Shown here piece after piece: positions 2,891 to 59,806 of a stretch of DNA of 64,000 nucleotides (within the stretch, counting starts at the first letter, position 1; every line of letters begins with the position of its first letter). The DNA lies in contig CAYQMB010000003.1 of the NCBI GenBank assembly GCA_964418565.1, forward strand, positions 3,892-67,891, written 5' to 3'. Source of the stretch: an uncultured Bacteroidales bacterium. Its GTDB lineage: Bacteria; Bacteroidota; Bacteroidia; Bacteroidales; ML635J-15. The position numbers and the translations under genes were made by a program. Under the pieces are notes generated by a model. The model was not told the DNA's origin and did not search any database. It saw only the letters and a list, made by a program, of their open reading frames with translations.

Positions 2891-3159
2891 AAGTCAAAAA
2901 TTTAATTCTTAAGGTTTGGCTTTACAAAATAAGAAAATAATGCCATATCAGTCCAAAATAATTCAGTATTTGTTTTACTTGCTCATTAGTTTTTGTGCAC
3001 ATCAAAATATCAAATTGTGTGCTGAAATGCTTGGTTTCAATTATTGTGCCAGCTTTTAAATCGTATTGTTCATGATGTGGTTTTAATTTGAGTGGTGTGG
3101 AATTAATGCAAGGTGGCGACCAGGTGAAATCGCAAGGCAGGCATTGGGCTTTAATGATT

Positions 3160-3254
3160 TAAAAAACACGGGTTCCACACTCGATACCTGCCCGCCCCAT
3201 ACTACTGGTTTCCCGGCAATGACAGGCAGATGGGCTCGTAATCAATTCTGAATG
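3160..3254 (-). repeat. degenerate fourth copy of the tRNA-Met downstream terminator module, split by a 48-nt insert (3186-3233)
   Basis: ttccacactcgata...ctcgtaatcaattctg aligns with caccacactcggtactcgctctcaattctg of the copies at 5104, 6343 and 8458. The A-run (3160-3165) sits in the same relative position. Confidence 0.4.
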
Positions 3255-3677: not shown

Positions 3678-5078
3678 ATGAAAAAAGCGACATTATTAAT
3701 CGTATTGATTTTTGCTATAGCAAAGCTTTATGGACAGGGTTATTATGAAATTGATTTTGTCGGATCGGGTGCTGATCCTGATAACATCCGTGTTGAAAAC
3801 CTGACTCAGGGAACCAGTTTGGATATGGATGGGACTGATGTACTCCACCTTATGCTGGGGGAATCAAGTATTGGTTCAATTACAGCAGATAGAGAAAATC
3901 TGACAATTTTTCCAATCCCTGTGAGGCAAACCTGTAACATTGAATTTATGAATGCAAACCGGGGAAATGTTAGTATCAGGATTTATGGTATTACCGGCAA
4001 GCAAATTCATGATTACAGCAATGTTTTGTCAGATGGGAGCCACCGGTTTAGTGTGACAGGGCTGGCTGCCGGTACGTATGTAATAAGAGTACAAACAGAA
4101 ACGGACTTGTTTACAGGAAAAGTCACTTCTGTTGAACACACTGAATCATCCCCCGCTATTACTCATAAAGCAGGAATAAAATCAAGCAATACAATTAAAA
4201 ATGCAGAAAATCCTGATCCATTGCATCCTGATTTATCCGGCAAAAACACGGGCAAGGCTATTGTCGAAATGGATTATTATGAAGGAGACCAGTTGAAGTT
4301 TACCGGGTATTCAAACGGATTTTTTAATGGATGTATATTTGCTTTGCCAGGCAGTAATAATACATATACATTTCAGTTTATTGAACAACTTGGTCAATGC
4401 AACGGTTTAACCCAAATTACAGACACACGGGATGGGCGCGTTTATAATACAATAGGGATTGGCGATCAATGCTGGATGGCCGAAAGCCTAAAATATTTAC
4501 CAGAGGTTGTAGGACCCGGTACAGGCTCAAATATCACAGCTTATTATTATGTATATGGTTATGACGGCACAAACGTGACAGCGGCCAAAGCAATTGCAAA
4601 TTTTGGTACGTATGGTGTATTGTACAACTGGCCTGCAGCGATGAATGGCATGGAAGGCAGTTCAGCCAACCCCAGCGGTGTGCAGGGTATTTGTCCTTCA
4701 GGCTGGCATTTGCCGAGCGATGCAGAATGGCAGGAGTTGGAAATGGCACTAGGTATGTCACAAGCCGATGCTGACCTTTTGGGCTGGAGAGGCACAAACG
4801 AAGGCAGCAAGTTGGCAGGTAATGCATCTTTATGGGAAGATGGAGGTTTAGAGCAAAATCCGGAATTCGGTAGTAGTGGTTTTGCAGCTCTTCCGGCTGG
4901 ATACCGTTCCGACAACGGTAGTTTCGGCTGCGGTGGTTCCCTTGGTTGGTGGTGGACTGCTACTGATTTTTATTACATTTTAGCCTGGTCCCGGGAGTTG
5001 ACTTACCTTCAAAGCGGTATCTACAGGTTCTATCCCAATATGGAGGTTGGTATACCTGTCCGTTGCGTAAGGGATTAA
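3678..5078 (+). CDS. secreted FISUMP-domain protein with an internal T9SS-CTD-like domain
   Basis: Signal peptide. The C-terminal ~230 aa match the Fibrobacter succinogenes major paralogous domain pattern (TDTRDGRVYNTIGIGDQCWMAESL, GVLYNW, CPSGWHLPSDAEWQELE, GFAALPAGYR, VRCVRD). Residues ~75-152 look like a T9SS sorting domain (LTIFPIPV...VSIRIYGITGKQI...LAAGTYVIRV...TGKVTSV). Confidence 0.7.
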   Translation: MKKATLLIVLIFAIAKLYGQGYYEIDFVGSGADPDNIRVENLTQGTSLDMDGTDVLHLMLGESSIGSITADRENLTIFPIPVRQTCNIEFMNANRGNVSIRIYGITGKQIHDYSNVLSDGSHRFSVTGLAAGTYVIRVQTETDLFTGKVTSVEHTESSPAITHKAGIKSSNTIKNAENPDPLHPDLSGKNTGKAIVEMDYYEGDQLKFTGYSNGFFNGCIFALPGSNNTYTFQFIEQLGQCNGLTQITDTRDGRVYNTIGIGDQCWMAESLKYLPEVVGPGTGSNITAYYYVYGYDGTNVTAAKAIANFGTYGVLYNWPAAMNGMEGSSANPSGVQGICPSGWHLPSDAEWQELEMALGMSQADADLLGWRGTNEGSKLAGNASLWEDGGLEQNPEFGSSGFAALPAGYRSDNGSFGCGGSLGWWWTATDFYYILAWSRELTYLQSGIYRFYPNMEVGIPVRCVRD

Positions 5079-5094: not shown

Positions 5095-5246
5095 CACAAA
5101 AAAAAGCGAGCACCACACTCGGTACTCGCTCTCAATTCTGCCTTGTGGGCCACTAGGGTTCCCGTCCTGTCGGCCGCTTGTTACACCAGTAGTCGTACAG
5201 GCCGCCTGCTGGCCGTGATAAATTCACCTGGACTCCCTGAATAGGA
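5095..5246 (-). repeat. third, decayed copy of tRNA-Met 3' end plus terminator, interrupted by a 66-nt insert (5161-5226) at the T-loop position
   Basis: acaaaaaaaagcgagcaccacactcggtactcgctctcaattctgccttgtgggccactagggtt matches the 6334-6399 copy with few changes. After the insert, cctggactccctga resumes the tRNA variable/anticodon-stem sequence. Confidence 0.6.
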
Positions 5247-5449
5247 TGCATACCCTGGACATAAAACAATCAAATAACATTTTGAAGCAAATTAAACATA
5301 AGTCCATCGTTTACAATGATTACAAAGGTTAATTGTTTGAAACTTTTATTGTTTGTTTTGTTTTAATATGGTATATTGTATGGTATAATGAAAATTTAAC
5401 GATATAAAGATTCACGAACCAAATGCGCTGATTTATTATTCGTTTACAA

Positions 5450-6238
5450 ATGCTTTCTTCATTAAAATCAAATATCGTAACGCTCATTATTATTGTATTT
5501 ACGGCTTTAATAATCATTGGTTTCGGATGTGCACCTTCTCCTATGTATTATGGTGTAGCCAATGGCGGAAGCGAATCTTCCTATATGGATAAACCCGTTT
5601 ATCGAGGCAGTGATCAGATTTCTGAGTATGTATCTGCTAAATTATATCATTCTGTGGATGATTACGCTTATTATGAAGATGAGTCGCTTGGATTTGCTGA
5701 ATTTAAGGCGCACCGTAGTCATACTTATAAGAATGCAAATCTGGCATACGGCGGATTTTTATATGGCGGATATTATAATGTGTCAGCATTAGAAAGGTTT
5801 AAAGGTACAAAGTACATGATAGGAAGTGGAATTGCAGGTGAAGCAAATTTAAATATCCCTTTCAGATATGTTGATTGGCGAATATTAGGTGTTAAAACCA
5901 CAATTCTTTATGAAAACGGCAGCTATGCCAGATTTAGAAGTAATGCGGCAGAATATCGGGGGATTGTTAATATACATCCGTATAATGCTATCTTAAGCTT
6001 TAGTTTCACAACAGAAATTGCTGTCAAATTAAAAAAAATGAGTTTTGGATTATTTATTGCAATGGGTGGAAGTTATAACCCGGATATTAATACATTGTAT
6101 GATCATGATATCGGTATTGCGACTTTCTGTTTGCATGGTACCTATAAACGTTTTACAGGTTTTGCCCAGTTAAACATTGGTGGTTTATTTATGGGCTACG
6201 GACAAACACTTTCAACTGGTGTTAGTTTCCGGTTTTAA
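5450..6238 (+). CDS. hypothetical outer-membrane beta-barrel-like protein
   Basis: N-terminal hydrophobic signal with Cys (GFGC). G/Y-rich alternating pattern and a C-terminal ...GVSFRF ending in Phe, as in OM barrels. AT-rich codon usage. No recognisable family. Confidence 0.45.
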   Translation: MLSSLKSNIVTLIIIVFTALIIIGFGCAPSPMYYGVANGGSESSYMDKPVYRGSDQISEYVSAKLYHSVDDYAYYEDESLGFAEFKAHRSHTYKNANLAYGGFLYGGYYNVSALERFKGTKYMIGSGIAGEANLNIPFRYVDWRILGVKTTILYENGSYARFRSNAAEYRGIVNIHPYNAILSFSFTTEIAVKLKKMSFGLFIAMGGSYNPDINTLYDHDIGIATFCLHGTYKRFTGFAQLNIGGLFMGYGQTLSTGVSFRF

Positions 6239-6306
6239 GTTTAAGCAACGCCGGCGATACAGGGCTTATGCAGGCCCTCCAGGGCTTCCATCCTTTCGGC
6301 GTAAAT

Positions 6307-6428
6307 AATTTTTCCCTGTGATTTCGTGATGTAACAAAAAAGCGAGCACCACACTCGGTACTCGCTCTCAATTCTGCTTTGTGGGCCCACTAGGGCTTGA
6401 ACCTAGGACTCCCTGATTATGAGACAGG
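6307..6428 (-). repeat. second copy: direct repeat of tRNA-Met anticodon stem-loop through 3' end, plus terminator and ~35 nt beyond (att-like)
   Basis: Aligned by eye to 8422-8542. The 83-nt core, from the terminator stem gcgagcacc to ttatgag, shows a single mismatch. The tRNA-derived part is 6382-6428. Confidence 0.85.
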
Positions 6429-6702
6429 AAAGGAAAACCAACCAACGGCAAGAAAACCAGAAAAATAGAAAAACTTAAATTTTGAATTGTAAAGTATTTG
6501 CAGGGTAATTTTGTGGATCTATAATTGCTTATAGGTGTGGCTTTTTGAACTTAATCATTTCAACAAGAATCATTTCTCAGCAACCTTAAAGCTATTAACA
6601 AAATTGGTCTTAGAGCCATCTCTGTAAACATTTTATCCTGTAATTCTGACCAGAATTCATTGAAATATTTTGCTCAAAAATATGGGGTTGCTTAGTGGAT
6701 AC

Positions 6703-7290
6703 TTACCGATCACAGTTTGAGCTCAGGCTAATGGCTTGGCTGACCAATTCCCCATTATGGGAAACTTCTAAAACTATGCCTGGTACAGATTCAAAATTTG
6801 TATGATAAGTGTAAGCGTACAACTTATTTTTCTTAATCTTCCGTGGCTTAAAATACCACACATCATATGAGTTTGTATCTCTCCTCAAAATCATATTTTT
6901 ACATTCAACGCCACAAATCGTTTTTTCCTTTTTTGTATCAACACGGGTAAAGTCATTAGCATACAAGGTATCAGATTCCATAAGTTTTTTCTGGTACGAA
7001 AAACTCTTTTTTATCGCATTTGTATTGGCATCAGAATATTCCTTATAAAACATTGACTTACTGGTTATCTGCTCCTTATCAAAATCAACAACAACAGTAA
7101 AATCATATTCAAGAAGCCTGTATTGATATGTACACATATCATTAGAAAAACAATCCCTGGTTTTATAATTTCCATTATCAGAATAATTCATGTATGTTAC
7201 CTGAATTTGTTTGGATTTTATTACATCATCTGACATAAAACCAAAAGAAAGGAATCCGATAATTACAAATAGAAATAAAATATTTTTCAT
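6703..7290 (-). CDS. hypothetical secreted protein, possibly GLPGLI-like
   Basis: I prefer the internal start MKNILFLFVIIGFLSF (cat at 7288-7290) because it removes the overlap with the upstream gene. The C-terminal WYF...SVPGIVLEV weakly resembles the GLPGLI family motif. Very AT-rich. Confidence 0.45.
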   Translation of the reverse strand: MKNILFLFVIIGFLSFGFMSDDVIKSKQIQVTYMNYSDNGNYKTRDCFSNDMCTYQYRLLEYDFTVVVDFDKEQITSKSMFYKEYSDANTNAIKKSFSYQKKLMESDTLYANDFTRVDTKKEKTICGVECKNMILRRDTNSYDVWYFKPRKIKKNKLYAYTYHTNFESVPGIVLEVSHNGELVSQAISLSSNCDR

Positions 7291-7300
7291 GATTGCAAAT

Positions 7301-8041
7301 TTAAAATTGTGAAACAAACCATGATAGGGATGAATAAACTGATGCTTCGATACATGCATTATTTACCTGCCCAATAAGTGAAGGCTTAAAATTAGGATCG
7401 TTTTCAACAATCTCGTGTAAACAATCTCCATAACCAATTGCATCAACAATAGCAAATTCTACGCCTATATTCCCATATAAGTATTTATTACCAAGCTTTA
7501 AATTCCAAAACTTATAACTTTCAATAAAAATTGACCCTGTAGCTACAATATTATAATAATCTACAATACCTAAACTATCAACATCTACCTTAGTAATGTA
7601 ATCATCAATATCCATCAAGACTCTCTCAATTGAATCACACTCACATATATGCTCGTGTAAAAACATTAAAAAATCAAAACTCTCACTGGAAATATCCCCT
7701 AATTGCAATCTTCGCTCAGCATAGTCATCTATTGAATCTCTCAAAATAAATACCTCATTAAAATGATATACAAAAGGAGTGGAATTGCCCCCTAAAACTA
7801 TATTTATAATCGAATCAAAGGATAAAGTATCATTATTCTCAAGTCCGATACAACTATCATAAGCCACCAGGCATTCATTATGGAAATAACCAGCATTGTA
7901 TGGATTGGTTACATCCAGCCCCGATTTCAATTCTTGTAAAGCAAGTTCATCCTCAACATCATTATTAATCTCTTTTTCACAACTAATAAAAGTAAAGATT
8001 GATAGCGTAAATGCGATTAAAAAAATCAGTTTAGTTTTCAT
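7301..8041 (-). CDS. hypothetical lipoprotein
   Basis: Lipobox signal MKTKLIFLIAFTLSIFTFISC. Acidic, Cys-containing body with no family recognised. Very AT-rich. Confidence 0.55.
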   Translation of the reverse strand: MKTKLIFLIAFTLSIFTFISCEKEINNDVEDELALQELKSGLDVTNPYNAGYFHNECLVAYDSCIGLENNDTLSFDSIINIVLGGNSTPFVYHFNEVFILRDSIDDYAERRLQLGDISSESFDFLMFLHEHICECDSIERVLMDIDDYITKVDVDSLGIVDYYNIVATGSIFIESYKFWNLKLGNKYLYGNIGVEFAIVDAIGYGDCLHEIVENDPNFKPSLIGQVNNACIEASVYSSLSWFVSQF

Positions 8042-8107
8042 AATTAATTAAGTTTAGGTTTAAAAATATTCATAGCAATATTACTATTAAATCCGTTATC
8101 AAAATGC

Positions 8108-8143
8108 GTATTTATACCCGTTTTGAAAAACGGGTATAAATAC
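8108..8143. repeat. perfect 36-bp palindrome (17-bp arms, 2-nt centre)
   Basis: gtatttatacccgtttt ga aaaacgggtataaatac read directly from the sequence. Confidence 0.85.
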
Positions 8144-8446
8144 CTGTGTCCAGTATCTTAATACACCCTCATTTCCCCTCGGCCATCAAACCGGTTCTTT
8201 TGGCCTTAGGTGCTGATGATACCGGATTCTGCTTTTATCACCGCATCCACAAGATGCTCAAAATCTACATCACCTTTGTACTTGCCTTCTTTAGTTACAT
8301 GGAAGATAAAGCCGATCATAGTGCTTTTAGCTGCTGCAATTTCTACAGTCGTTAGATATGTACATTTGTACTGTCCTAATGAAAAAAAAGATTTGACATC
8401 CCCCAGGTTTTTTGCTTGATTAATTTTCCCGTGATTTCGTGACTAA

Positions 8447-8480
8447 ACAAAAAAAGCGAGCACCACACTCGGTACTCGCA
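8447..8480 (-). terminator. intrinsic terminator of tRNA-Met
   Basis: In minus-strand sense: GCGAGTACC GAGTGT GGTGCTCGC (9 bp in this copy, one G-U; the 6343 and 5104 copies add a 10th closing A-T pair) followed by a run of T. Confidence 0.8.
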
Positions 8481-8495
8481 CTCAATTCTGCTTTG

Positions 8496-8569
8496 TGGGC
8501 CCACTAGGGCTTGAACCTAGGACTCCCTGATTATGAGTCAGGTGCTCTAACCAACTGAGCTATGGGCCC
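8496..8569 (-). tRNA. tRNA-Met (anticodon CAU), elongator type; tRNA-Ile2 (lysidine) cannot be excluded
   Basis: Hand-folded 74-nt cloverleaf: GGGCCCA TA GCTC AGTTGGTTA GAGC A CCTGA CTCATAA TCAGG GAGTC CTAGG TTCAAGC CCTAG TGGGCCC A. The 1-72 pair is G-C and the anticodon stem lacks the three G-C pairs of initiators. CCA is not encoded. Confidence 0.9.
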
Positions 8570-8636: not shown

Positions 8637-9965
8637 TCATTTTTTTGATTTTTCCGGCAAACACAAGATGAGGACAGCAGCTAAAAAGGGCAGGGCAGGT
8701 ATGTTGTAACGTACCAGGGCTCCCAATACCGGTGTGCTGATGCCCGTCAGACTGAAAAGTATGATTACAAAGGACAGGGTGAAAAACAAAAGATTTTGCT
8801 CACTGTGCCGGAGCTTGCGGTGCCTGAAAATTACCAGCAATATGAGCAGCAAAAAAGCCAGTTTTTCCAGGGCAGCAAGCAACATCATGGGTGAATTGAT
8901 TTCCAGCAAGTGGGGGCGGAGCAGACTGTTTGCGAAGCCTTGCGGAACATGCTTCAAAAGCGAGGACAAACTGGCCTCAATGTCAGGTAGCGAAACGGCA
9001 GAACCCACATCACCGACGCTGTCAACCATGCTGACAAAGTCGTTTTGCTTTTGCTCGATGATGCGAAACATATCGGTTCGGGGACTTGCTAAAGAGGTAA
9101 GCCAGACCATGATTATCATGCCTGCATGCAGGAGCAGGAACCAGACTATGCTTCTTTTTAGCGCGGGTTTTTTACCTGGTTTTCCCGTGCTCAGCAGCCA
9201 GATCAACCCCGGAACCATGCAAAGCAGTACGTAAATCTTTGTCAGAAAAAAGAAAAGAACGGCAAGCAGGACCAGTAGCAGACTTTTTGTGCTGAACCTC
9301 CGGCTGAGTTTTACCACAGCGAAAAAAAGCAGGCCGGTGTTGAGCATGAGCAGCCCTTCTTTCAGCAGGCCGGAGCTCCACAACCAGACCGATGGAACCA
9401 TGAACACAGCCAAAGCAAGCCATTTGCTGCTCCTTGTGAGCATGGTGATGCCACGGTAGAGCAGTGTCAGTCCCAGAAAGGCCAGAAAGGCCATGATAAA
9501 AGTGTGCGCAAGCATGCTGCCGCCAGTGAGCGGGTACAGCAGAGCATTGAAACGGATTAACGTACGGTTGTCATTCCATACGCCGTTCAGGTATTGCCGG
9601 TTCCAGTGGCTGGTTTGCTCAAGGCAGGCCTGCACTTTCGGATCATCCATGCCAATGCCTGTTATGATTCTGGCGTACGTGGCGATGGATTCAGACTGTG
9701 TGGCAATCACTTCCCCGTCGTTGAAATATTTGTGCATGTCTGCCGTGTCCTGTGGATAATACCATGTGTACAGGGCAAAAAGTGCCAGCGCAGCCATCAG
9801 TTTGGCGGTCCACAAACCCAGACGCCACTGTGCGTTCAGTCCGGTTTTCCGAAACACAGGCAGACGGTACACCAGCCAGAAACTTCCGGCGGTAACGATC
9901 AGCAGGCTGATGATCTGTATGACAGTCATAGGTTGGCAAGGTACAAAAATACCGGCATTTTTCAA
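8637..9965 (-). CDS. polytopic integral membrane protein (GT-C / polymerase-like topology, function unknown)
   Basis: More than 10 predicted hydrophobic helices in the 442-aa ORF. The start may be the internal MTVIQIISLL (9929). All overlapping ORFs (8734-10014) are GC-driven shadows. Confidence 0.6.
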   Translation of the reverse strand: MKNAGIFVPCQPMTVIQIISLLIVTAGSFWLVYRLPVFRKTGLNAQWRLGLWTAKLMAALALFALYTWYYPQDTADMHKYFNDGEVIATQSESIATYARIITGIGMDDPKVQACLEQTSHWNRQYLNGVWNDNRTLIRFNALLYPLTGGSMLAHTFIMAFLAFLGLTLLYRGITMLTRSSKWLALAVFMVPSVWLWSSGLLKEGLLMLNTGLLFFAVVKLSRRFSTKSLLLVLLAVLFFFLTKIYVLLCMVPGLIWLLSTGKPGKKPALKRSIVWFLLLHAGMIIMVWLTSLASPRTDMFRIIEQKQNDFVSMVDSVGDVGSAVSLPDIEASLSSLLKHVPQGFANSLLRPHLLEINSPMMLLAALEKLAFLLLILLVIFRHRKLRHSEQNLLFFTLSFVIILFSLTGISTPVLGALVRYNIPALPFLAAVLILCLPEKSKK

Positions 9966-11015: not shown

Positions 11016-13067
11016 ATGAAACAATTTTCACTTTTTACGGTTATCACGCTTGTGATAGTAGCCTCCGGCTTCATGATGTCATGTAAATCGGATGCGAATG
11101 AATCTGAAGAAACGAAAGCACTTATGAAAAAAGATCTTGATACCAGCGTATCGCCCAAAGAAGATTTTTACCAGTATGCTACAGGTGGCTGGCAGAAAAA
11201 CAATCCACTTCCTGAAGAAGAAAGCCGTTTTGGATCCTTTGATCAACTGGCTAAAAACACCAGCCGGAAAGTGAAAGATATTATTGTCGGATTGTCAGAA
11301 AAGGACACTGATAAAGGCAGCATGGAATGGAAAATCGGCACCTGGTACAGCGTGGGAATGGACTCAGCTACCATTGAAGCGCAAGGCATCAAACCGATTG
11401 AAAATGAGCTTGAACGCATTGAAAACCTGTCAGCAAAATCGGATGTGATCCGTCAGGCAGCTTACAACAACCGTCACGGAATGAGCAGCTTGTTTTATTT
11501 GTTTGGTGGTGCCGATGCTGATAATGCCGATATGAAAATTGCGCAGATACATCAGGGTGGTCTCGGTTTGCCCGATCGCGATTATTACACCAGCGATGAT
11601 GCACGAAGCCAGGGTATTCGCGATGAATATGTCCGCTACATGACCAACATGATGACGCTGCTTGGTGATGATGAGGCAGAAGCCAAAGATAAAGCTGACA
11701 TGATTATGGCTCTTGAAACCCGCCTGGCAGAAAAGTCCATGACCCGGCTTGAGCAGCGCGATCCGCACGCTACCAATAACAAAATGGAACTGGCTGAGCT
11801 GAATGAACTCGCCGGATCTTTTGATTTTCCTCTGTATTTTGAGGAAGTAGGACTGACTGAACCCGGTGTTATTAATGTCCGCCAGCCCGAGTTTTTCAAA
11901 GAACTGGGTATGGCTGTGGATGAGGTTTCCGTTGATGACTGGAAAACCTATTTCCGCTGGAAACTCATTAACAGTACAGCCAGTTTGCTAAGCTCTGACT
12001 TTGACGGACTGCGCTTCGGCTTTTACGGGAAATACCTGCGTGGTCAGGAAAAGCAAAAACCCCGCTGGCGTCGTATGGTTGCGTCAACCAATGGTGCATT
12101 GGGTGAAGCTGTCGGTAAAAAATTCGTGGAAAAGCACTTTCCGCCCGAAGCCAAAGAACGTATGGTTGAATTGGTTGCCAATCTGCAGGATGCGTTTAAA
12201 CAACGTATGAAAAACTCCACCTGGATGAGCGAAGAAACACAGGAAAAAGCCATTGAAAAGCTGGAAGGTATGCGCGTAAAAATCGGGTATCCCGATAAAT
12301 GGCGTGATTACTCCGGACTTGAGGTTACTGAAGATTCTTACGTACAAAACGTGATGAATTCCAATGTGTTTGATTTTGAGTATATGCTGGATAAAATCGG
12401 AAAACCGGTGGACAAGGAGGAATGGCACATGAATCCTCAGACAGTGAATGCCTATTATTCACCACAAACCAATGAAATTTGCTTTCCTGCCGGCATTCTG
12501 CAGCCACCTTTCTTTTATCTGAATGCAGATGATGCTGTGAATTACGGTGCCATTGGCATGGTTATCGCGCATGAAATGACACATGGTTTTGATGACAAAG
12601 GCCGTCTGTTTAACAAGGAGGGAAACCTGCAGGAATGGTGGACAAAAGAAGATGCCGAGCGTTTTGACAAAGAAGCTCAGGTGTTGGTTGAACGCTACAA
12701 CGAAATTACTGTTCTCGACACCGTACATGCCGATGGTGAGCTTTCACTGGGTGAAAATATCGCCGATTTTGGCGGTCTGAGCATTGCCTACACAGCTTTC
12801 CGCAATAGCCTTGAAGACGGTGAAGAACCTGAAAAAATTGACGGTTTTACTGCAGACCAGCGCTTTTTCCTGGCTTATGCCAAAGTCTGGGCGCAAAACA
12901 TTACCGATAAGGAAATTCTGCGTCGTACAAAAGAAGATGTGCACTCGCTTGGCAAATGGCGTGTTAACGGACAGTTGGTTGGTATGCCGGCTTTCCATGA
13001 GGCCTTTGATGTAAACGAAGGCGATGGAATGTACCTGCCCGAAGAAGAATGGACACATGTCTGGTGA
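11016..13067 (+). CDS. M13 family zinc metallopeptidase (PepO / endothelin-converting-enzyme-like) lipoprotein
   Basis: HEMTHGFD zinc motif, NAYYSPQTNEI, GENIADFGG, and a C-terminal W. I prefer the start at MKQFSLFTVITLVIVASGFMMSC (lipobox). Confidence 0.85.
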   Translation: MKQFSLFTVITLVIVASGFMMSCKSDANESEETKALMKKDLDTSVSPKEDFYQYATGGWQKNNPLPEEESRFGSFDQLAKNTSRKVKDIIVGLSEKDTDKGSMEWKIGTWYSVGMDSATIEAQGIKPIENELERIENLSAKSDVIRQAAYNNRHGMSSLFYLFGGADADNADMKIAQIHQGGLGLPDRDYYTSDDARSQGIRDEYVRYMTNMMTLLGDDEAEAKDKADMIMALETRLAEKSMTRLEQRDPHATNNKMELAELNELAGSFDFPLYFEEVGLTEPGVINVRQPEFFKELGMAVDEVSVDDWKTYFRWKLINSTASLLSSDFDGLRFGFYGKYLRGQEKQKPRWRRMVASTNGALGEAVGKKFVEKHFPPEAKERMVELVANLQDAFKQRMKNSTWMSEETQEKAIEKLEGMRVKIGYPDKWRDYSGLEVTEDSYVQNVMNSNVFDFEYMLDKIGKPVDKEEWHMNPQTVNAYYSPQTNEICFPAGILQPPFFYLNADDAVNYGAIGMVIAHEMTHGFDDKGRLFNKEGNLQEWWTKEDAERFDKEAQVLVERYNEITVLDTVHADGELSLGENIADFGGLSIAYTAFRNSLEDGEEPEKIDGFTADQRFFLAYAKVWAQNITDKEILRRTKEDVHSLGKWRVNGQLVGMPAFHEAFDVNEGDGMYLPEEEWTHVW

Positions 13068-14545: not shown

Positions 14546-14571
14546 CACCTTAAAAAATGTCAAAAAAAAAG

Positions 14572-14643
<72 letters not shown>

Positions 14644-48939: not shown

Positions 48940-50355
48940 TTATTTCCCGCGTCCTCTAATTACAGTGATAATCGTATATATCAGAATTTTAAAATCCACA
49001 GCAAGTGATATGTTTTCAATATAGAGGATGTCGTATTTAAGGCGCTCTATCATCTCGTCTACATTTTCGGCATAGCCGTATTTAACCTGTCCCCACGATG
49101 TTATGCCCGGCCGGACTTTGTGCAGAAGGTGATAATGTGGTGCTTTTTCAACAATCTGATCAATGAAGTATTGTCGTTCAGGCCTGGGGCCTACAAGAGC
49201 CATATCACCACGCAGAACATTGTAAAATTGTGGCAACTCGTCCATCCGGGTTTTACGTAAAAACCGGCCAAAATTGGTAACCCGCTTATCACCTTCGCTG
49301 CTAAGTTTTGGGCCGTGTTTCTCTGAGCCAACATACATCGAACGGAATTTGTATATTTTAAATGGTTTGCCATAACGACCAATGCGTTCATGCGAATACA
49401 TGATTGGCCCTTTGGATGAAAGTTTTACGCCAATAGAGATGGCCAGATATAGAGGAGACAACAAAATTAAAGCAATGGCTGATGCGACAATGTCCATTAA
49501 GCGTTTGGTGTGTACCTGCCAGGTAGGCATCAGATGCTTACGGATTTGTATTAAGGGAGTACCCAAAATGTGCGTCATCCTTACTTTACCAATAAGGATG
49601 TCATACATGTCTGGTATAACTTTTATGGTTAATTTTGTTCCATGCAGCTTGTTTATGATCTCCTGAATCATGCCATGCTCATTGGATTCTATTGCTATAA
49701 TAGCCTCTTCAACTTTATGTTTGCTAATCAAATCATGTATTTCATTAAGTGACCCCAGGGCAGGTAAATGATCCTGTAGCTGGTAATGTTCCTTTTTGCG
49801 AATGGGAATAAATCCGATAATGTTTAAGCCACTGTAGGGCTTTTGGTATGCAATCTCTTCGTACAGTTTGACAGCTCTTTCTGTGCTGCCTACCATAATG
49901 GCATTGAATTTTAATTTGTGATCACGGATTTGGTGGTTTGTGTAAGTAGTGATAAACACACGTGGTAAATATGTGAGAAAAAACTGTAAGCCGAAAAGAA
50001 CACCAAAAGACTGGTAATAATCGCGGTAAGAGTTGACAATATCATCAAGTAGTAAGGCAAAGAATATGATGAAAACACCCAGAAATGTTGTGACAAATGT
50101 ATTACCAAGCTCTTTAAGGCGTGATTTGCGGTAAATGTCACGGTAATAGCCGCTTAGCAGGTGGAGGCTGAGCCAGAATAAGGGAATGAGGGTGATTCCA
50201 AGCCAAAACTGTGTGTCTAAATTTATGTCAGGGGTTTGCCCCAGTGTCCGGGCTTCAATGACAAGCTTTCTGAATATGAAAAAAACTGTCCAGCTAATGG
50301 CTGCAGCCAGATAATCGGATAGTATATAGAGTGCTCTGTGTTTATTTACATTCAT
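48940..50355 (-). CDS. polyprenyl-phosphate glycosyl-1-phosphate transferase (WbaP/bacterial sugar transferase family)
   Basis: N-terminal TM helices. C-terminal sugar-transferase domain (DELPQFYNVLRGDMALVGPRP, PGITSWGQV). Confidence 0.85.
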   Translation of the reverse strand: MNVNKHRALYILSDYLAAAISWTVFFIFRKLVIEARTLGQTPDINLDTQFWLGITLIPLFWLSLHLLSGYYRDIYRKSRLKELGNTFVTTFLGVFIIFFALLLDDIVNSYRDYYQSFGVLFGLQFFLTYLPRVFITTYTNHQIRDHKLKFNAIMVGSTERAVKLYEEIAYQKPYSGLNIIGFIPIRKKEHYQLQDHLPALGSLNEIHDLISKHKVEEAIIAIESNEHGMIQEIINKLHGTKLTIKVIPDMYDILIGKVRMTHILGTPLIQIRKHLMPTWQVHTKRLMDIVASAIALILLSPLYLAISIGVKLSSKGPIMYSHERIGRYGKPFKIYKFRSMYVGSEKHGPKLSSEGDKRVTNFGRFLRKTRMDELPQFYNVLRGDMALVGPRPERQYFIDQIVEKAPHYHLLHKVRPGITSWGQVKYGYAENVDEMIERLKYDILYIENISLAVDFKILIYTIITVIRGRGK

Positions 50356-51230
50356 TAGTAATGCAATATTTTGATGTTATCCAGGTATACCTCACCGGCA
50401 ACAAAATCCTCATTGTTTTCCATGGGTTGGGCACTGATAAACAGACGGTATTCTGTTGCATTGGTTGTTTCAGCAACAATATCCGTGAGATTGATGTATA
50501 CCTTATTCCATTCCGGTGAATCAAATAATGTTAATATGGGGTACCGTACGTCAGAAAAGCCTTCACCTGTATATTCTTTGGCAAATACCCCTACGGTAAA
50601 TTCCTGAGTGCACTTATAGCTTACTTCAGCAAAAATCTTTGCGTCTTTTGGTAAGGGGAAAACATCTGCTGTCCGGCAGTCAAAATTCGGGCGGGAAATA
50701 TCATTGGCAAAATAACCACATTGCCCGTCAAGACAATTTGAATCATTAACTGTATTTAAGGTGGTGTCACTTGCGGTTGTGATTTCAAATCCGGTACCCA
50801 AATCTTCAAAATCCTCAAAAAACGGAACCTCGGTGTCTGTGTAGTTAAACACAGGGTTGATATTAAGCGTATCTCCGGGTGGCAGGAGCGTATCTGAGCG
50901 ATAACTTGTCATGAAAGGGTAGATGACATGAAAACTGCTCTGCCCGCTTTCTTTAACACCTGCTTCAAGGGTGAGTTGCTGTTCGCCAGAGGGAAGTACC
51001 GGTACGGTAAACGGTGCTTCGTATGTGCCCACCAGCTGACCGTTAACGTATACCCATATATCTTCAATGTTGTGAAAATTGCCACCCTGTCCTGTAGTGT
51101 TGTTTACCATGATGGTGTCAACCTTTATATAGGAAGCCTGAGGCTCAGGAGGATTGATGATGTTACAGGAATTAAATGAGCTGATTATCAGCGCAAAAAT
51201 GAGGATAAAACTGATATGTCTACCGGGCAT
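50355..51230 (-). CDS. hypothetical lipoprotein
   Basis: I prefer the start at MPGRHISFILIFALIISSFNSC (lipobox), which avoids overlap with the upstream gene. No family recognised. Confidence 0.5.
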   Translation of the reverse strand: MPGRHISFILIFALIISSFNSCNIINPPEPQASYIKVDTIMVNNTTGQGGNFHNIEDIWVYVNGQLVGTYEAPFTVPVLPSGEQQLTLEAGVKESGQSSFHVIYPFMTSYRSDTLLPPGDTLNINPVFNYTDTEVPFFEDFEDLGTGFEITTASDTTLNTVNDSNCLDGQCGYFANDISRPNFDCRTADVFPLPKDAKIFAEVSYKCTQEFTVGVFAKEYTGEGFSDVRYPILTLFDSPEWNKVYINLTDIVAETTNATEYRLFISAQPMENNEDFVAGEVYLDNIKILHY

Positions 51231-51283
51231 ACTGTTTCGGTTTTGATAAATAACGGCTGCAAAGTAAAGATATTGTTTGCAAA

Positions 51284-52255
51284 TTATGAACAATTTGAAG
51301 TCAATTTAAGCCGCGAATTGATTTCCCTGATAACAGCCATGGTTCTGGAGGTGTTTTCAAGGCTTACTTCAGGAGACATTGCCTGCAGGATGCTTTTTGA
51401 AAAGGCTTCAAGTTCATCTGCAACCACATTGGCATTTTTTACCGGGATGGGGTCGCAGTTCATGTTGTTTTTGTTTTCCCCGAATAAACTGATATCGCCA
51501 TCTTTGTCTTTGCTGTAACGGAAGGCCGCCTGATTAATAAAGTCAATTTCGATGTAGTCGGATGGGTTGTAAAATACCGCACTTTGTTCCTCATGACCGG
51601 AAATGCCGGAAGCCGTGAGATTGGCAATGCAGCCGTTGTGAAACTCGATGAAGGCGTTGACAACTTCCGGGCTCTGCTTGTTTGTACTCACGCCATATGC
51701 GGAAATTTTACGAATGTTGGATCTGACAACGCTCAGAATGTTGTCCACATCGTGCAGCATGAGGTCGTTTACCGGATGTACAGGCCTTGATTCATTGTAA
51801 GCTGTCATTCGCCGTGTCTGTATCATTCTTACCCGTGGGTGGATGAAGGGGCGTGCTGCCAGGAATGCCGGATTGTACCGGTGCGGAAAACCTACCTGTA
51901 CCACCACCTCGGCTTCATCGCTGAGATTTATCAGATCTCGTGTCTCTGAAATGCTGTAGTCGCCGGGCTTTCCAATAAATATGTGTTTGGAGTTGCGCAA
52001 AGCGGATTTTAAACAGGTGTAAGAATTGTAACCGGATGTCGTTATCAGCGCATCAACATGCTCAAACAGGTCCTCAGGATGGAGAAAAATCTTGATGCCG
52101 TAATGCTTGCGGATATCAAGAACGCGTTCCTGGTTAATGTCATGTAAACCCACAATCTGAAATGTGTTCAGTTGGTTTAATAAGTCCAGGTAATGCGTGA
52201 TGTCTTCATCTGTGCCGAGTATGCCTGCTTTTATCATTCCGATTGATTTTTGCAC
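51284..52255 (-). CDS. Gfo/Idh/MocA-family oxidoreductase
   Basis: N-terminal Rossmann-like segment, and the size and pattern (EKP-like GKP, C-terminal alpha/beta domain) of the family. Moderate confidence. Confidence 0.55.
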   Translation of the reverse strand: MQKSIGMIKAGILGTDEDITHYLDLLNQLNTFQIVGLHDINQERVLDIRKHYGIKIFLHPEDLFEHVDALITTSGYNSYTCLKSALRNSKHIFIGKPGDYSISETRDLINLSDEAEVVVQVGFPHRYNPAFLAARPFIHPRVRMIQTRRMTAYNESRPVHPVNDLMLHDVDNILSVVRSNIRKISAYGVSTNKQSPEVVNAFIEFHNGCIANLTASGISGHEEQSAVFYNPSDYIEIDFINQAAFRYSKDKDGDISLFGENKNNMNCDPIPVKNANVVADELEAFSKSILQAMSPEVSLENTSRTMAVIREINSRLKLTSNCS

Positions 52256-59202: not shown

Positions 59203-59806
59203 CAGAAGAACAGTATAAGGAGTTTGCAAATTCCCGGTTGCCACTTATTTACAAGTTGCAACATATTCATATTTCCGCAATGTAATAACGCAAGACCTTG
59301 ACAGGTGATTTTATTCAAACAGGTGGTTTCATGTTGAAAAAATGATGTTTTATGGGGATGTGGGCGGTCTGCTTTTTTCATCCAGAGAATCAAGAAAGTC
59401 CGGAACGTTCGTAAACGTTAAAAAATCCGCCAGCCCCTGCCCGCCGATATTATTTTAAATGGTTGGCAGGCTGGCACTTGCCACCCACCGCAGGGAGCAG
59501 CGGGGCAAATTCTGGCAGAATCCGGAAATACAACCAAACCAGAATCAAAGTTTCGTAAATACTTGTTGTTGTTTGTCGTTCATTTGTGAATTACGAAACG
59601 GATATAGTAACAACAAAGCTTGTGTTAGTGTGCTATTACGTGTGCTTTATATGCCGGATGTAAGAGTCAGATTGACTGTGATTTAGTTTAGAATTGTTAT
59701 AAATTCACAACTGCCATCGATTTTGTAATTTTTAAAATTATATTTGTTTCCAATAGACAGGTAAAACTTTTAAAACTTAATTAAACTTAACTTAATCATT
59801 TATTCT

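Follow-up and report, generated by a model that had tools for sequence, protein, structure and literature searches.

Genomic islands at tRNA genes can be recognized from a regenerated tRNA gene and a displaced fragment of the original gene, which mark the two ends of an island, and in the Islander collection the class of islands with a crossover centred on the anticodon loop comprises 2,083 members, with 125 tandem arrays also recorded (Hudson, Lau and Williams, 2015, PMC4383910; Williams, 2002, cited therein). Cis-mobilizable elements (CIMEs) have been defined, and their tandem accretion described, for the elements related to ICESt1/ICESt3 of Streptococcus thermophilus (Guedon et al., 2017, PMC5704250), and several of the islands found at ssrA in Dehalococcoides are devoid of an integration module and have been discussed as possible CIMEs or fixed relics (McMurdie et al., 2011, PMC3146451). 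The present work concerns a stretch of 64,000 nt from an uncultured Bacteroidales bacterium (assembly GCA_964418565.1, contig CAYQMB010000003.1, positions 3,892 to 67,891), which will be referred to as the window, and in particular a tRNA(CAU) gene (8495-8569, minus strand) whose 3' half and terminator are repeated in direct orientation around an inserted segment of about 2 kb, the islet (6429-8423). The original prediction for this locus offered two readings, viz. heavily decayed tandem islets resulting from integration by tyrosine recombinases, or small cassettes moved in trans somewhat like those of an integron. From the evidence presented below, it is likely that the array is a fossil stack of integration scars together with one islet lacking an integrase, at a tRNA(CAU) gene which is used by tyrosine-integrase elements of the Bacteroidota.

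In integrons, serial recombination sites of the same orientation separate short, gene-sized segments, and these systems possess intI, attI, attC sites and a cassette promoter; the Bacteroides elements NBU1 and NBU2 use integrases of their own to insert at the 3' ends of the tRNA-Leu and tRNA-Ser genes. Compared with these systems, the window locus shares with the Islander-type islands an intact tRNA gene with a direct 3' fragment, an anticodon-loop crossover, stacked scars and an empty site in relatives, but it differs from them in that every such island is required to carry an integrase, which the window islet does not have, and in that its repeat is about 120 nt long and includes the terminator, whereas the repeats at this site elsewhere are of 43-64 nt. 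Because Islander requires an integrase, pipelines of this kind would discard the window islet. With the CIMEs it shares a tandem structure arising from integration, decay and re-integration at one site, although the window islet shows no remnants of conjugation genes that would mark an integrative and conjugative or integrative and mobilizable ancestor, its mobilization would be hypothetical, and the target is the anticodon loop of tRNA(CAU) in a member of the Bacteroidota rather than the 3' end of fda in S. thermophilus. The Dehalococcoides islands likewise lie in tandem downstream of one small-RNA gene, are bounded by direct repeats of its 3' end and vary in content between strains, but they involve the serine recombinase DsiB, a 20-bp repeat and the T-loop of tmRNA, in contrast to a tyrosine integrase family and a tRNA anticodon loop. 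The resemblance to integrons is limited to serial sites of the same orientation between gene-sized segments, since the window contains no intI next to an attI, no attC-type sites and no cassette promoter logic, its repeats are tRNA-derived attachment scars, one of its "cassettes" is native to the locus and its segments are of mixed orientation. NBU1 and NBU2, with which the comparison was made by description only, are also Bacteroidota elements with tyrosine integrases that use the 3' parts of tRNA genes, but they carry their own integrase and mobilization genes, neither of which is present in the window islet, and their target tRNAs are different. Thus, the islet fits the structure of a tRNA island except for the integrase and, as far as its sequence tells, may qualify as a CIME; decayed tandem islets of this CIME-like kind at a tRNA hotspot are a known and fairly ordinary genome fossil and not an integron.

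The tRNA gene at this locus is an intact gene of 75 nt with the anticodon CAT, which was detected by ARAGORN and matched the Rfam tRNA model with 73.2 bits. It had been predicted to be an intact tRNA-Met(CAU) gene, and while its intactness and anticodon were borne out, the gene, which serves as the integration target, probably encodes tRNA-Ile2 (CAU, lysidine type) instead of tRNA-Met. Its sole full-length match in E. coli (76% over 75 nt) is to a gene adjoining mug that is annotated as tRNA-Ile in RefSeq, and this E. coli gene is likewise labelled "tRNA-Met(cat)" by ARAGORN. The anticodon stem-loop of the window tRNA forms an attL-type core, CCTGA-CTCATAA-TCAGG. Repeat copy 1 (8424-8542, minus strand) consists of the 3' half of this gene (8495-8542), a spacer, terminator 1 (hairpin at 8456-8479 and U-run at 8449-8455; folding energy -21.8 kcal/mol, z = -3.7) and the start of an old scar (8424-8448). 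Repeat copy 2 (6311-6428, minus strand) has the same makeup, with the displaced original tRNA 3' half (6381-6428), terminator 2 (6336-6365; -22.7 kcal/mol, z = -4.1) and the start of an old scar. Within these two copies, positions 8450-8542 and 6336-6428 are 98% identical over 93 nt with 2 mismatches, and the complete blocks (8424-8542 and 6311-6428) are 94% identical over about 120 nt, with a local alignment score of 202 against 15.4 +/- 2.1 for shuffled sequences; the recurrence of a block of this extent at 6307-6428, which had been described in the original prediction, is therefore upheld. The shared block starts in the 5' strand of the anticodon stem, takes in the remainder of the tRNA up to its 3' end (48 nt) and continues through a 16-nt spacer, the terminator and some 25-35 nt more. 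The 48-nt tRNA-derived part of copy 2 is in direct orientation and shows 1 mismatch to the tRNA, and its junction, cctgt|CTCATAATCAGG, represents an attR-type site with the core CCTGT-CTCATAA-TCAGG. Apart from the tRNA, an Rfam search of the window found only an unrelated DUF805b motif, and no family corresponding to the repeats or the pseudo-tRNA units.

The significance of the junction in copy 2 becomes evident from a scan of metagenomes with a degenerate pattern for the 3' half of this tRNA, by which at least 120 loci were retrieved. Among the matches listed, 27 were displaced 3' halves in direct orientation that lay in the middle of a contig and were not part of an intact tRNA gene, and in all 27 of them, as in copy 2 of the window, identity with the tRNA starts at the same junction in the anticodon loop, CTC|ATAATCAGG. 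Often, the sequence just before this junction imperfectly imitates the 5' strand of the stem (cctgaCTC, atgaCTC or cctgtCTC), and the form seen in copy 2, cctgtCTC, is the junction of the integrase-bearing contig L100. Where the flank could be assessed, 18 of 24 displaced copies among these matches directly adjoin an open reading frame (ORF) similar to the integrases of this site and 6 do not; the ORF mostly begins 120-260 nt away on the element side. Ten such adjacent ORFs were analysed with Pfam, and nine of them contained Phage_int_SAM_5 and Phage_integrase domains, most also having Arm-DNA-bind_5. A complete element of 5.1 kb is located between the intact tRNA and the displaced half in L083, and in L069 a second segment (transposase, M23 peptidase, RHS) without an adjacent integrase is stacked behind an integrase-bearing element. 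The elements of this family thus cross over in the anticodon loop, restore the tRNA and displace its original 3' half to their far end, and throughout uncultured Bacteroidota the anticodon loop of this tRNA(CAU) gene is heavily used for attachment. Scans of viral contigs for a phage attP with the exact tRNA half, the degenerate half and the unit pattern gave 0 matches each. As a separate observation, integrase-less DNA beside a displaced half in L049 (1-2240) encodes a protein that by eye is TIR-like.

The arrangement of the same locus in related organisms shows what has been inserted in the window. In L011 and L015, the tRNA is followed by the terminator, a scar and then directly by a gene for a 261-aa protein, with no islet present, so that these contigs represent the empty site. 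The product of this gene is 80% identical to that of the 262-aa ORF of the window (5450-6238), its relative orientation is the same, and a PepX/S15 peptidase gene comes next. As the 261-aa gene lies beside the tRNA in these relatives, the DNA at 6429-8423 is an insertion, without an integrase, between the regenerated tRNA and the displaced half, and from the same gene order copy 2 and the sequence downstream of it correspond to the original tRNA 3' half and its native flank. Most of the 261-aa gene has been lost in L016. Two further relatives, L153 and L149, were reached through a 90%-identity cluster of the 442-aa anchor protein. Over 11.4 kb, the contig from a sister species, L153, shows 88.8% identity to the window, with which it is collinear exactly up to the 3' end of the tRNA; beyond this point it has a different terminator, three exact repeats of AACTTTACAAAA and a full-length 407-aa integrase of the same broad family. 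The three repeats are located at 11554-11617, just ahead of the start codon of the integrase, and are candidate arm-type binding sites or promoter elements. In L149, the tRNA is followed by terminator A and then by serial modules consisting of a hybrid scar and terminator A, with a run of Ns inside the array; on the other side of the Ns are a hybrid scar, a different terminator (CGTTGAAAATAAAAGGGTTGCA...), a truncated integrase (a 132-aa C-terminal fragment covering profile positions 56-169 of 172) and a type IX secretion system (T9SS) protein. No trace of the L153 and L149 integrases was detected in the window, and the FISUMP protein of the window (3678-5078), considered as a possible neighbour shared with the T9SS protein of L149, proved to be unrelated to it. 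The comparison of relatives that had been proposed for this locus has accordingly yielded empty sites (L011, L015) as well as alternative occupants with an intact (L153) or truncated (L149) integrase, and the order of repeats and genes differs among the relatives instead of being strictly conserved.

The inserted DNA in the window amounts to about 2.0 kb with a GC content of 31%, as compared to 42% for the entire window and 45-50% for the neighbouring core genes. The hand counts of G+C given in the original prediction (13/60 in 7501-7560 and 33/60 in 9601-9660) were exact, and the AT-rich character that it ascribed to the whole tract holds for 6429-8423 but not for the FISUMP gene, which is not AT-rich (43% GC). 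Two genes remain in the islet, both on the minus strand. The first (7301-8041) encodes a predicted lipoprotein of 246 aa with a signal peptide ending in ...FISC, which is effectively an orphan, as only 1 homologue (P0121, 93%) was present among 5.8 billion proteins; the second (6703-7290) encodes a near-orphan secreted protein of 195 aa with 10 matches among 1.84 billion representatives and a weak, sub-threshold match to PNGase_F-II_N. Neither gene had an above-threshold Pfam match or any match in PADLOC or PHROGs. In addition to these two genes the islet contains the scar of an IS66-family element (6620-6698, minus strand), comprising the end of the element and the start of its first small ORF, which we take to be TnpA-like. 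The scar was recognized by its homology to a flank in L026 (score 47 against 19.3 +/- 2.4 for the null; reached by 0 of 500 shuffles), where a DDE_Tnp_IS66 fragment (PF03050, E = 7.7e-10) is found. The two-gene module itself is also present in L026, which derives from another sample and another organism, with 92% nucleotide identity and again in an IS66-scarred context, but the IS66 end in the window is inverted relative to the module as compared with L026, and no window arms, repeats or tRNA piece surround the module there. A foreign origin of the islet is supported by its low GC content, by its near-orphan genes and by the occurrence of the module in this other context. The IS66 scar of the window lies between copy 2 and the 195-aa gene, i.e., in the position occupied by the integrase in most of the integrase-bearing elements surveyed.

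That no integrase or transposase gene lies nearby had also been stated in the original prediction, and our searches agree with it. No integrase, transposase or recombinase domain was detected in the scanned window ORFs of at least 180 aa (a Pfam scan that left out two ORFs at 50355-52255) or in the local small ORFs scanned, and tblastn searches with 17 integrases specific for this site gave no match in the full 64 kb. Remnants of an integrase were also not found in the islet by tblastn or by six-frame reading of both of its non-coding arms, and these arms show no homology to the arms of integrase-bearing elements except for the IS66 scar. Some minor features of the islet and its distribution may be recorded here. 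The tRNA-proximal non-coding arm contains a near-perfect palindrome of 36 nt (TATTTATACCCGTTTT/GAAAAACGGGTATAAATA) at 8108-8143, and beside it is an ORF fragment of 37-55 aa (8206-8370, minus strand) without a family match. A contig from SRR34348033 (L028), whose anchor protein is 60% identical, stops inside the tRNA at the equivalent of window position 8525, a break of the kind that repetition of the tRNA 3' half in that organism would produce; the same sample also contains the two-gene module of the islet at 95% identity (L027).

Behind the islet, the locus carries traces of older events. Repeat copy 3 (minus strand) is made up of terminator 3 (5100-5129; -27.3 kcal/mol, z = -5.9), a spacer, an end identical to the acceptor and T-stem of the tRNA (to 5158) and an old scar unit (to 5246). 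Its segment 5100-5158 shows 96.7% identity over 60 nt, with a score of 108 as compared to 15.6 for the null, this stretch comprising the exact 30-nt terminator, the spacer, the acceptor and the 3' strand of the T-stem. Identity is lost abruptly at the T-loop, where the copy is broken by a foreign stretch of about 66 nt, and an anticodon-arm-like sequence, "GGACTCCCTGA", resumes at 5231-5246. A profile derived from the scars of relatives matches copy 3 at 5146-5243 (E = 9e-7), and the description of 5095-5246 as a decayed and interrupted copy was thus accurate. In L011, L015, L014 and L149, the unit following the terminator is a pseudo 3' half in which the "TC" of the T-loop has been replaced by an insert (G-AACCTGTC...GGACGG), and copy 3 is a unit of this type with a longer T-loop insert. 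Another decayed scar of this nature, a pseudo tRNA 3' half with a T-loop insert, was identified at 6255-6310 (minus strand) by alignment to the unit of L011/L015; in an nhmmer search the unit profile matched it at 6271-6300 (E = 0.007), within the decayed region beyond terminator 2 (6255-6335), and the 25 nt past terminator 1 form the start of yet another old unit. A fourth copy, proposed as a recurrence of the terminator module at 3160-3254, did not stand up to analysis: the 35-nt similarity there (3161-3187, minus strand) has a score of 26, with 24 as the maximum of the null, lacks a stable fold (z = +1.0) and showed no match in profile searches and no tRNA-derived signal. On these grounds it was not counted in the array, and it is either a doubtful terminator relic or a chance match.

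The scar units have also recombined with each other. In the hybrid units of L149, L014 and copy 3 of the window, the 3' end and terminator are identical to those of the tRNA itself, and both L149 (11418-11744) and L014 (11404-11605) contain serial modules, 99-100% identical and with a period of 117 nt, in which the tRNA 3' end, the terminator and a pseudo 3' half with a T-loop insert follow one another with no cargo in between. Tandem Repeats Finder reported nothing in L149 owing to the gap of Ns, and the modules there were found by another repeat search. Exact serial modules and hybrid units together indicate that the blocks recombine with each other. Such recombination would also account for the 97-100% identity of the tRNA-end and terminator parts in the three window copies, next to unit parts that have diverged far more. 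Older scars and recombining modules characterize this locus throughout the clade. It was also observed that L014 and L015 agree at every position for 9,767 nt (100.000% identity), after which they become fully different inside the T-arm of the tRNA, where L014 has an apparent 79-nt unit inserted in the tRNA and flanked by AAGCCCT; this may be a real variant or an assembly join, and as the latter is possible it is used here only as a hint of strain polymorphism.

Between copies 2 and 3 lies a segment (5402-6238, plus strand) consisting of the 262-aa lipoprotein gene (5450-6238) and a 48-nt remnant of a PepX/S15 peptidase gene (5402-5449), which corresponds to the last 48 nt of the PepX gene. 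The 262-aa gene had been regarded as plain cassette cargo, an interpretation contradicted by its position next to the tRNA in relatives and by the PepX remnant. In L011, no distal scar that would make the pair of 261-aa and PepX genes a bounded islet was found beyond PepX. The segment is 86.7% identical in nucleotide sequence to L011 (11593-12425), as compared to 67-75% for the neighbouring genes, and the synonymous divergence (dS) between the window and L011 is 0.29 for the 262-aa gene versus 1.86, 2.18 and saturation for three adjacent core genes. The segment is native to the locus in this clade, but judging from these values it has been exchanged between lineages far later than the organisms diverged.

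Taken together, the shared anticodon-loop junction, the integrases of relatives and the IS66 scar favour the first of the two readings originally offered, that of heavily decayed tandem islets left by tyrosine-recombinase integration. According to this proposal, the youngest element would have entered by a crossover in the anticodon loop, and its integrase and most of its body would later have been lost, probably through insertion of an IS66 element and an adjacent deletion. What was left would be some 2 kb with the two secreted/lipoprotein genes and the IS66 scar, lying between intact core sites, and we infer that the islet is the stranded remnant of a tyrosine-integrase element in a CIME-like state. 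Copy 3 and the stretches just past terminators 1 and 2 would be older scars inherited across the clade, the near-identity of the tRNA-end and terminator parts is best accounted for by homologous recombination or gene conversion among the blocks, and the same process would generate the 117-nt serial modules of relatives. As for the 262-aa segment that separates copy 2 from copy 3, it would be native to the locus in the clade but re-imported or exchanged in recent times. Several observations weigh against this proposal. The repeat continues for about 75 nt past the tRNA end in the window, across a terminator that is specific to the lineage, as compared to at most about 4 nt in L083, L085 and L069 and about 19 nt in L073, and a T-stem variant present in both window copies was otherwise seen only in L092 among the 123 matches listed. 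Neither the long repeat nor this variant is predicted by simple integration of a foreign attP, and an extra step is therefore needed: the element may have been formed within the lineage, e.g., by an excision that took along the terminator and part of an old scar, or the copies may have been homogenized later. Remnants of transfer genes were not found in the islet, and, as integrase remnants are likewise lacking, its origin as a larger element is an inferred one. Lastly, it is not cleanly explained why copy 3 lies beyond genes that are native to the locus.

An alternative to a stranded relic is that the islet is a live CIME-like cassette with functional attL and attR sites, moved either in trans, by an integrase of this family that is encoded elsewhere in the genome or brought in by another element, or in cis once it has accreted with such an element, in which case the tRNA would act as a platform that accretes cassettes. 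Both core sites are indeed intact (CCTGA/CCTGT-CTCATAA-TCAGG), an integrase of this specificity occupies the same locus in the sister species (L153), and a Bacteroidota contig from the same sample series as the window (L104) has a displaced copy of this tRNA half. Additionally, a strain of the same species (L092), which is 99.3% identical over 3,075 nt, has GTTGAAAATCAAAGGGTT right after the 3' end of the tRNA in place of the window terminator. The contig ends at this sequence (3076-3093), which also follows the tRNA in L085 and, as a one-base variant, constitutes terminator B of L149; the switch may reflect another occupant of the site within this population, where integration may thus be continuing. 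Other small islets bounded by repeats and lacking an integrase are also found at this tRNA, viz. two of 2.4 kb in L073 (2324-4645), with a DUF6088/AbiEii toxin-antitoxin pair, and in L085 (7318-9675), with lipoproteins and an HTH_17 gene. Of the displaced copies among the matches listed, about one in four has no adjacent integrase. Despite these indications, we regard a live cassette as unlikely. Contigs from about 10 independent samples, 99.2-99.9% identical to the window, cross every junction in unchanged order, those that encode the 246-aa, 262-aa and FISUMP proteins in exact form do not differ in gene order, and no empty site or circle junction was present among these same-species contigs; look-ups with the exact 442-aa anchor protein and P0001 added nothing to this. 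The module of L026 has neither the arms nor the repeats of the window, and hence the unit did not move there as a whole, and none of the integrase-less islets recurs as a whole unit in another contig of the sample. The L153-type arm motif AACTTTACAAAA occurs in the window at chance level, and the IS66 scar points to decay.

A second alternative dispenses with an integrase altogether and supposes that the block of about 120 nt was duplicated by unequal homologous recombination, the foreign DNA entering afterwards by illegitimate or IS66-mediated recombination. Exact, cargo-less duplications of such modules with a 117-nt period are present in L149 and L014, the repeat in the window equals a whole module and is atypically long for repeats made by integrases at this site, both copies are species-specific in sequence, and IS66 remnants adjoin the cargo in the window as well as in L026. 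However, the boundary of copy 2 falls at exactly the same nucleotide as the anticodon-loop junction in the 27 independent copies among the matches listed, and it is preceded by the "cctgt" mimic of the 5' stem that is typical of element arms, a placement that is unlikely to be due to chance. Unequal recombination also predicts hybrids with a T-loop insert such as copy 3 and not a clean, full 3' half such as copy 2, and we consider this explanation quite unlikely.

It has further been considered that the integrase-less islets with intact anticodon-loop cores (those of the window, L073 and L085) are cargo cassettes moved in trans by the diverse tyrosine integrases specific for tRNA(CAU) that circulate in Bacteroidota, with the recombining 117-120-nt module (tRNA end, terminator and pseudo-half) as a landing pad where they would accrete and be shuffled, a system that would be integron-like in function. 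This idea, which corresponds to the second reading of the original prediction, gained no positive support, as neither an empty-site contig nor a circle contig was found in about 10 samples and no arm motif is shared with the L153 element, and we hold it to be very unlikely; if true, mobilization of these islets in trans would amount to a cassette system at a tRNA, which nothing in this analysis shows. Lastly, the idea of a generic, dispersed terminator or repetitive extragenic palindromic (REP)-like element with chance similarity to a tRNA, or of an assembly artefact, is refuted. A strong intrinsic terminator hairpin does belong to the repeated block, but the 30-nt terminator occurs exactly 3 times in the 64 kb (0 expected), always at the tRNA locus and with tRNA-derived sequence, the tRNA-derived 41-mer occurs exactly twice (0 expected), and independent assemblies cross all of the junctions.

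Taken alone, the probable stack of scars in the window is a routine fossil that illustrates how tRNA integration sites gather scars and stranded cargo. About a quarter of the scars at tRNA(CAU), among the matches listed, have no integrase and are missed by island finders that require one, and the cargo beside such scars is of the defence type or surface type (the AbiE pair, the TIR-like protein and lipoproteins). Recombination among the scars produces exact 117-nt modules and homogenized terminators, which can break assemblies and mislead annotation.

The setting of the array is that of an otherwise conserved chromosomal region. To the right of the tRNA are genes for a polytopic membrane protein, PlsY and an M13 peptidase, and the order M13 peptidase, PlsY, membrane protein and tRNA(CAU) is kept in relatives in which the anchor protein is 54-60% identical; in a scan of the GTDB species, the nearest representatives were only 28-30% identical in this protein and the tRNA was absent from the site. 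The remainder of the window is occupied by housekeeping genes (ParAB, Ddl, GlnA, DnaK, RNase G, GuaA and others). A 91-nt "tRNA-Gly(GCC)" reported by ARAGORN at 59458-59548 was rejected as a false positive, as it has no Rfam tRNA match and does not resemble the real tRNA-Gly gene at 14571-14643. Proteins of the host carry T9SS sorting domains and the FISUMP domain, as in Bacteroidota. The DUF805b RNA motif mentioned above (RF02914; 3624-3658, plus strand) reaches 41.7 bits, the gathering score being 35.6 (E = 2e-9), and lies 20 nt upstream of the start of the FISUMP gene. The product of this gene (466 aa) has an unusual domain order, in that Por_Secre_tail, the "C-terminal" sorting domain of the T9SS, is located near the N-terminus (residues 77-148), followed by Fib_succ_major at residues 260-465.

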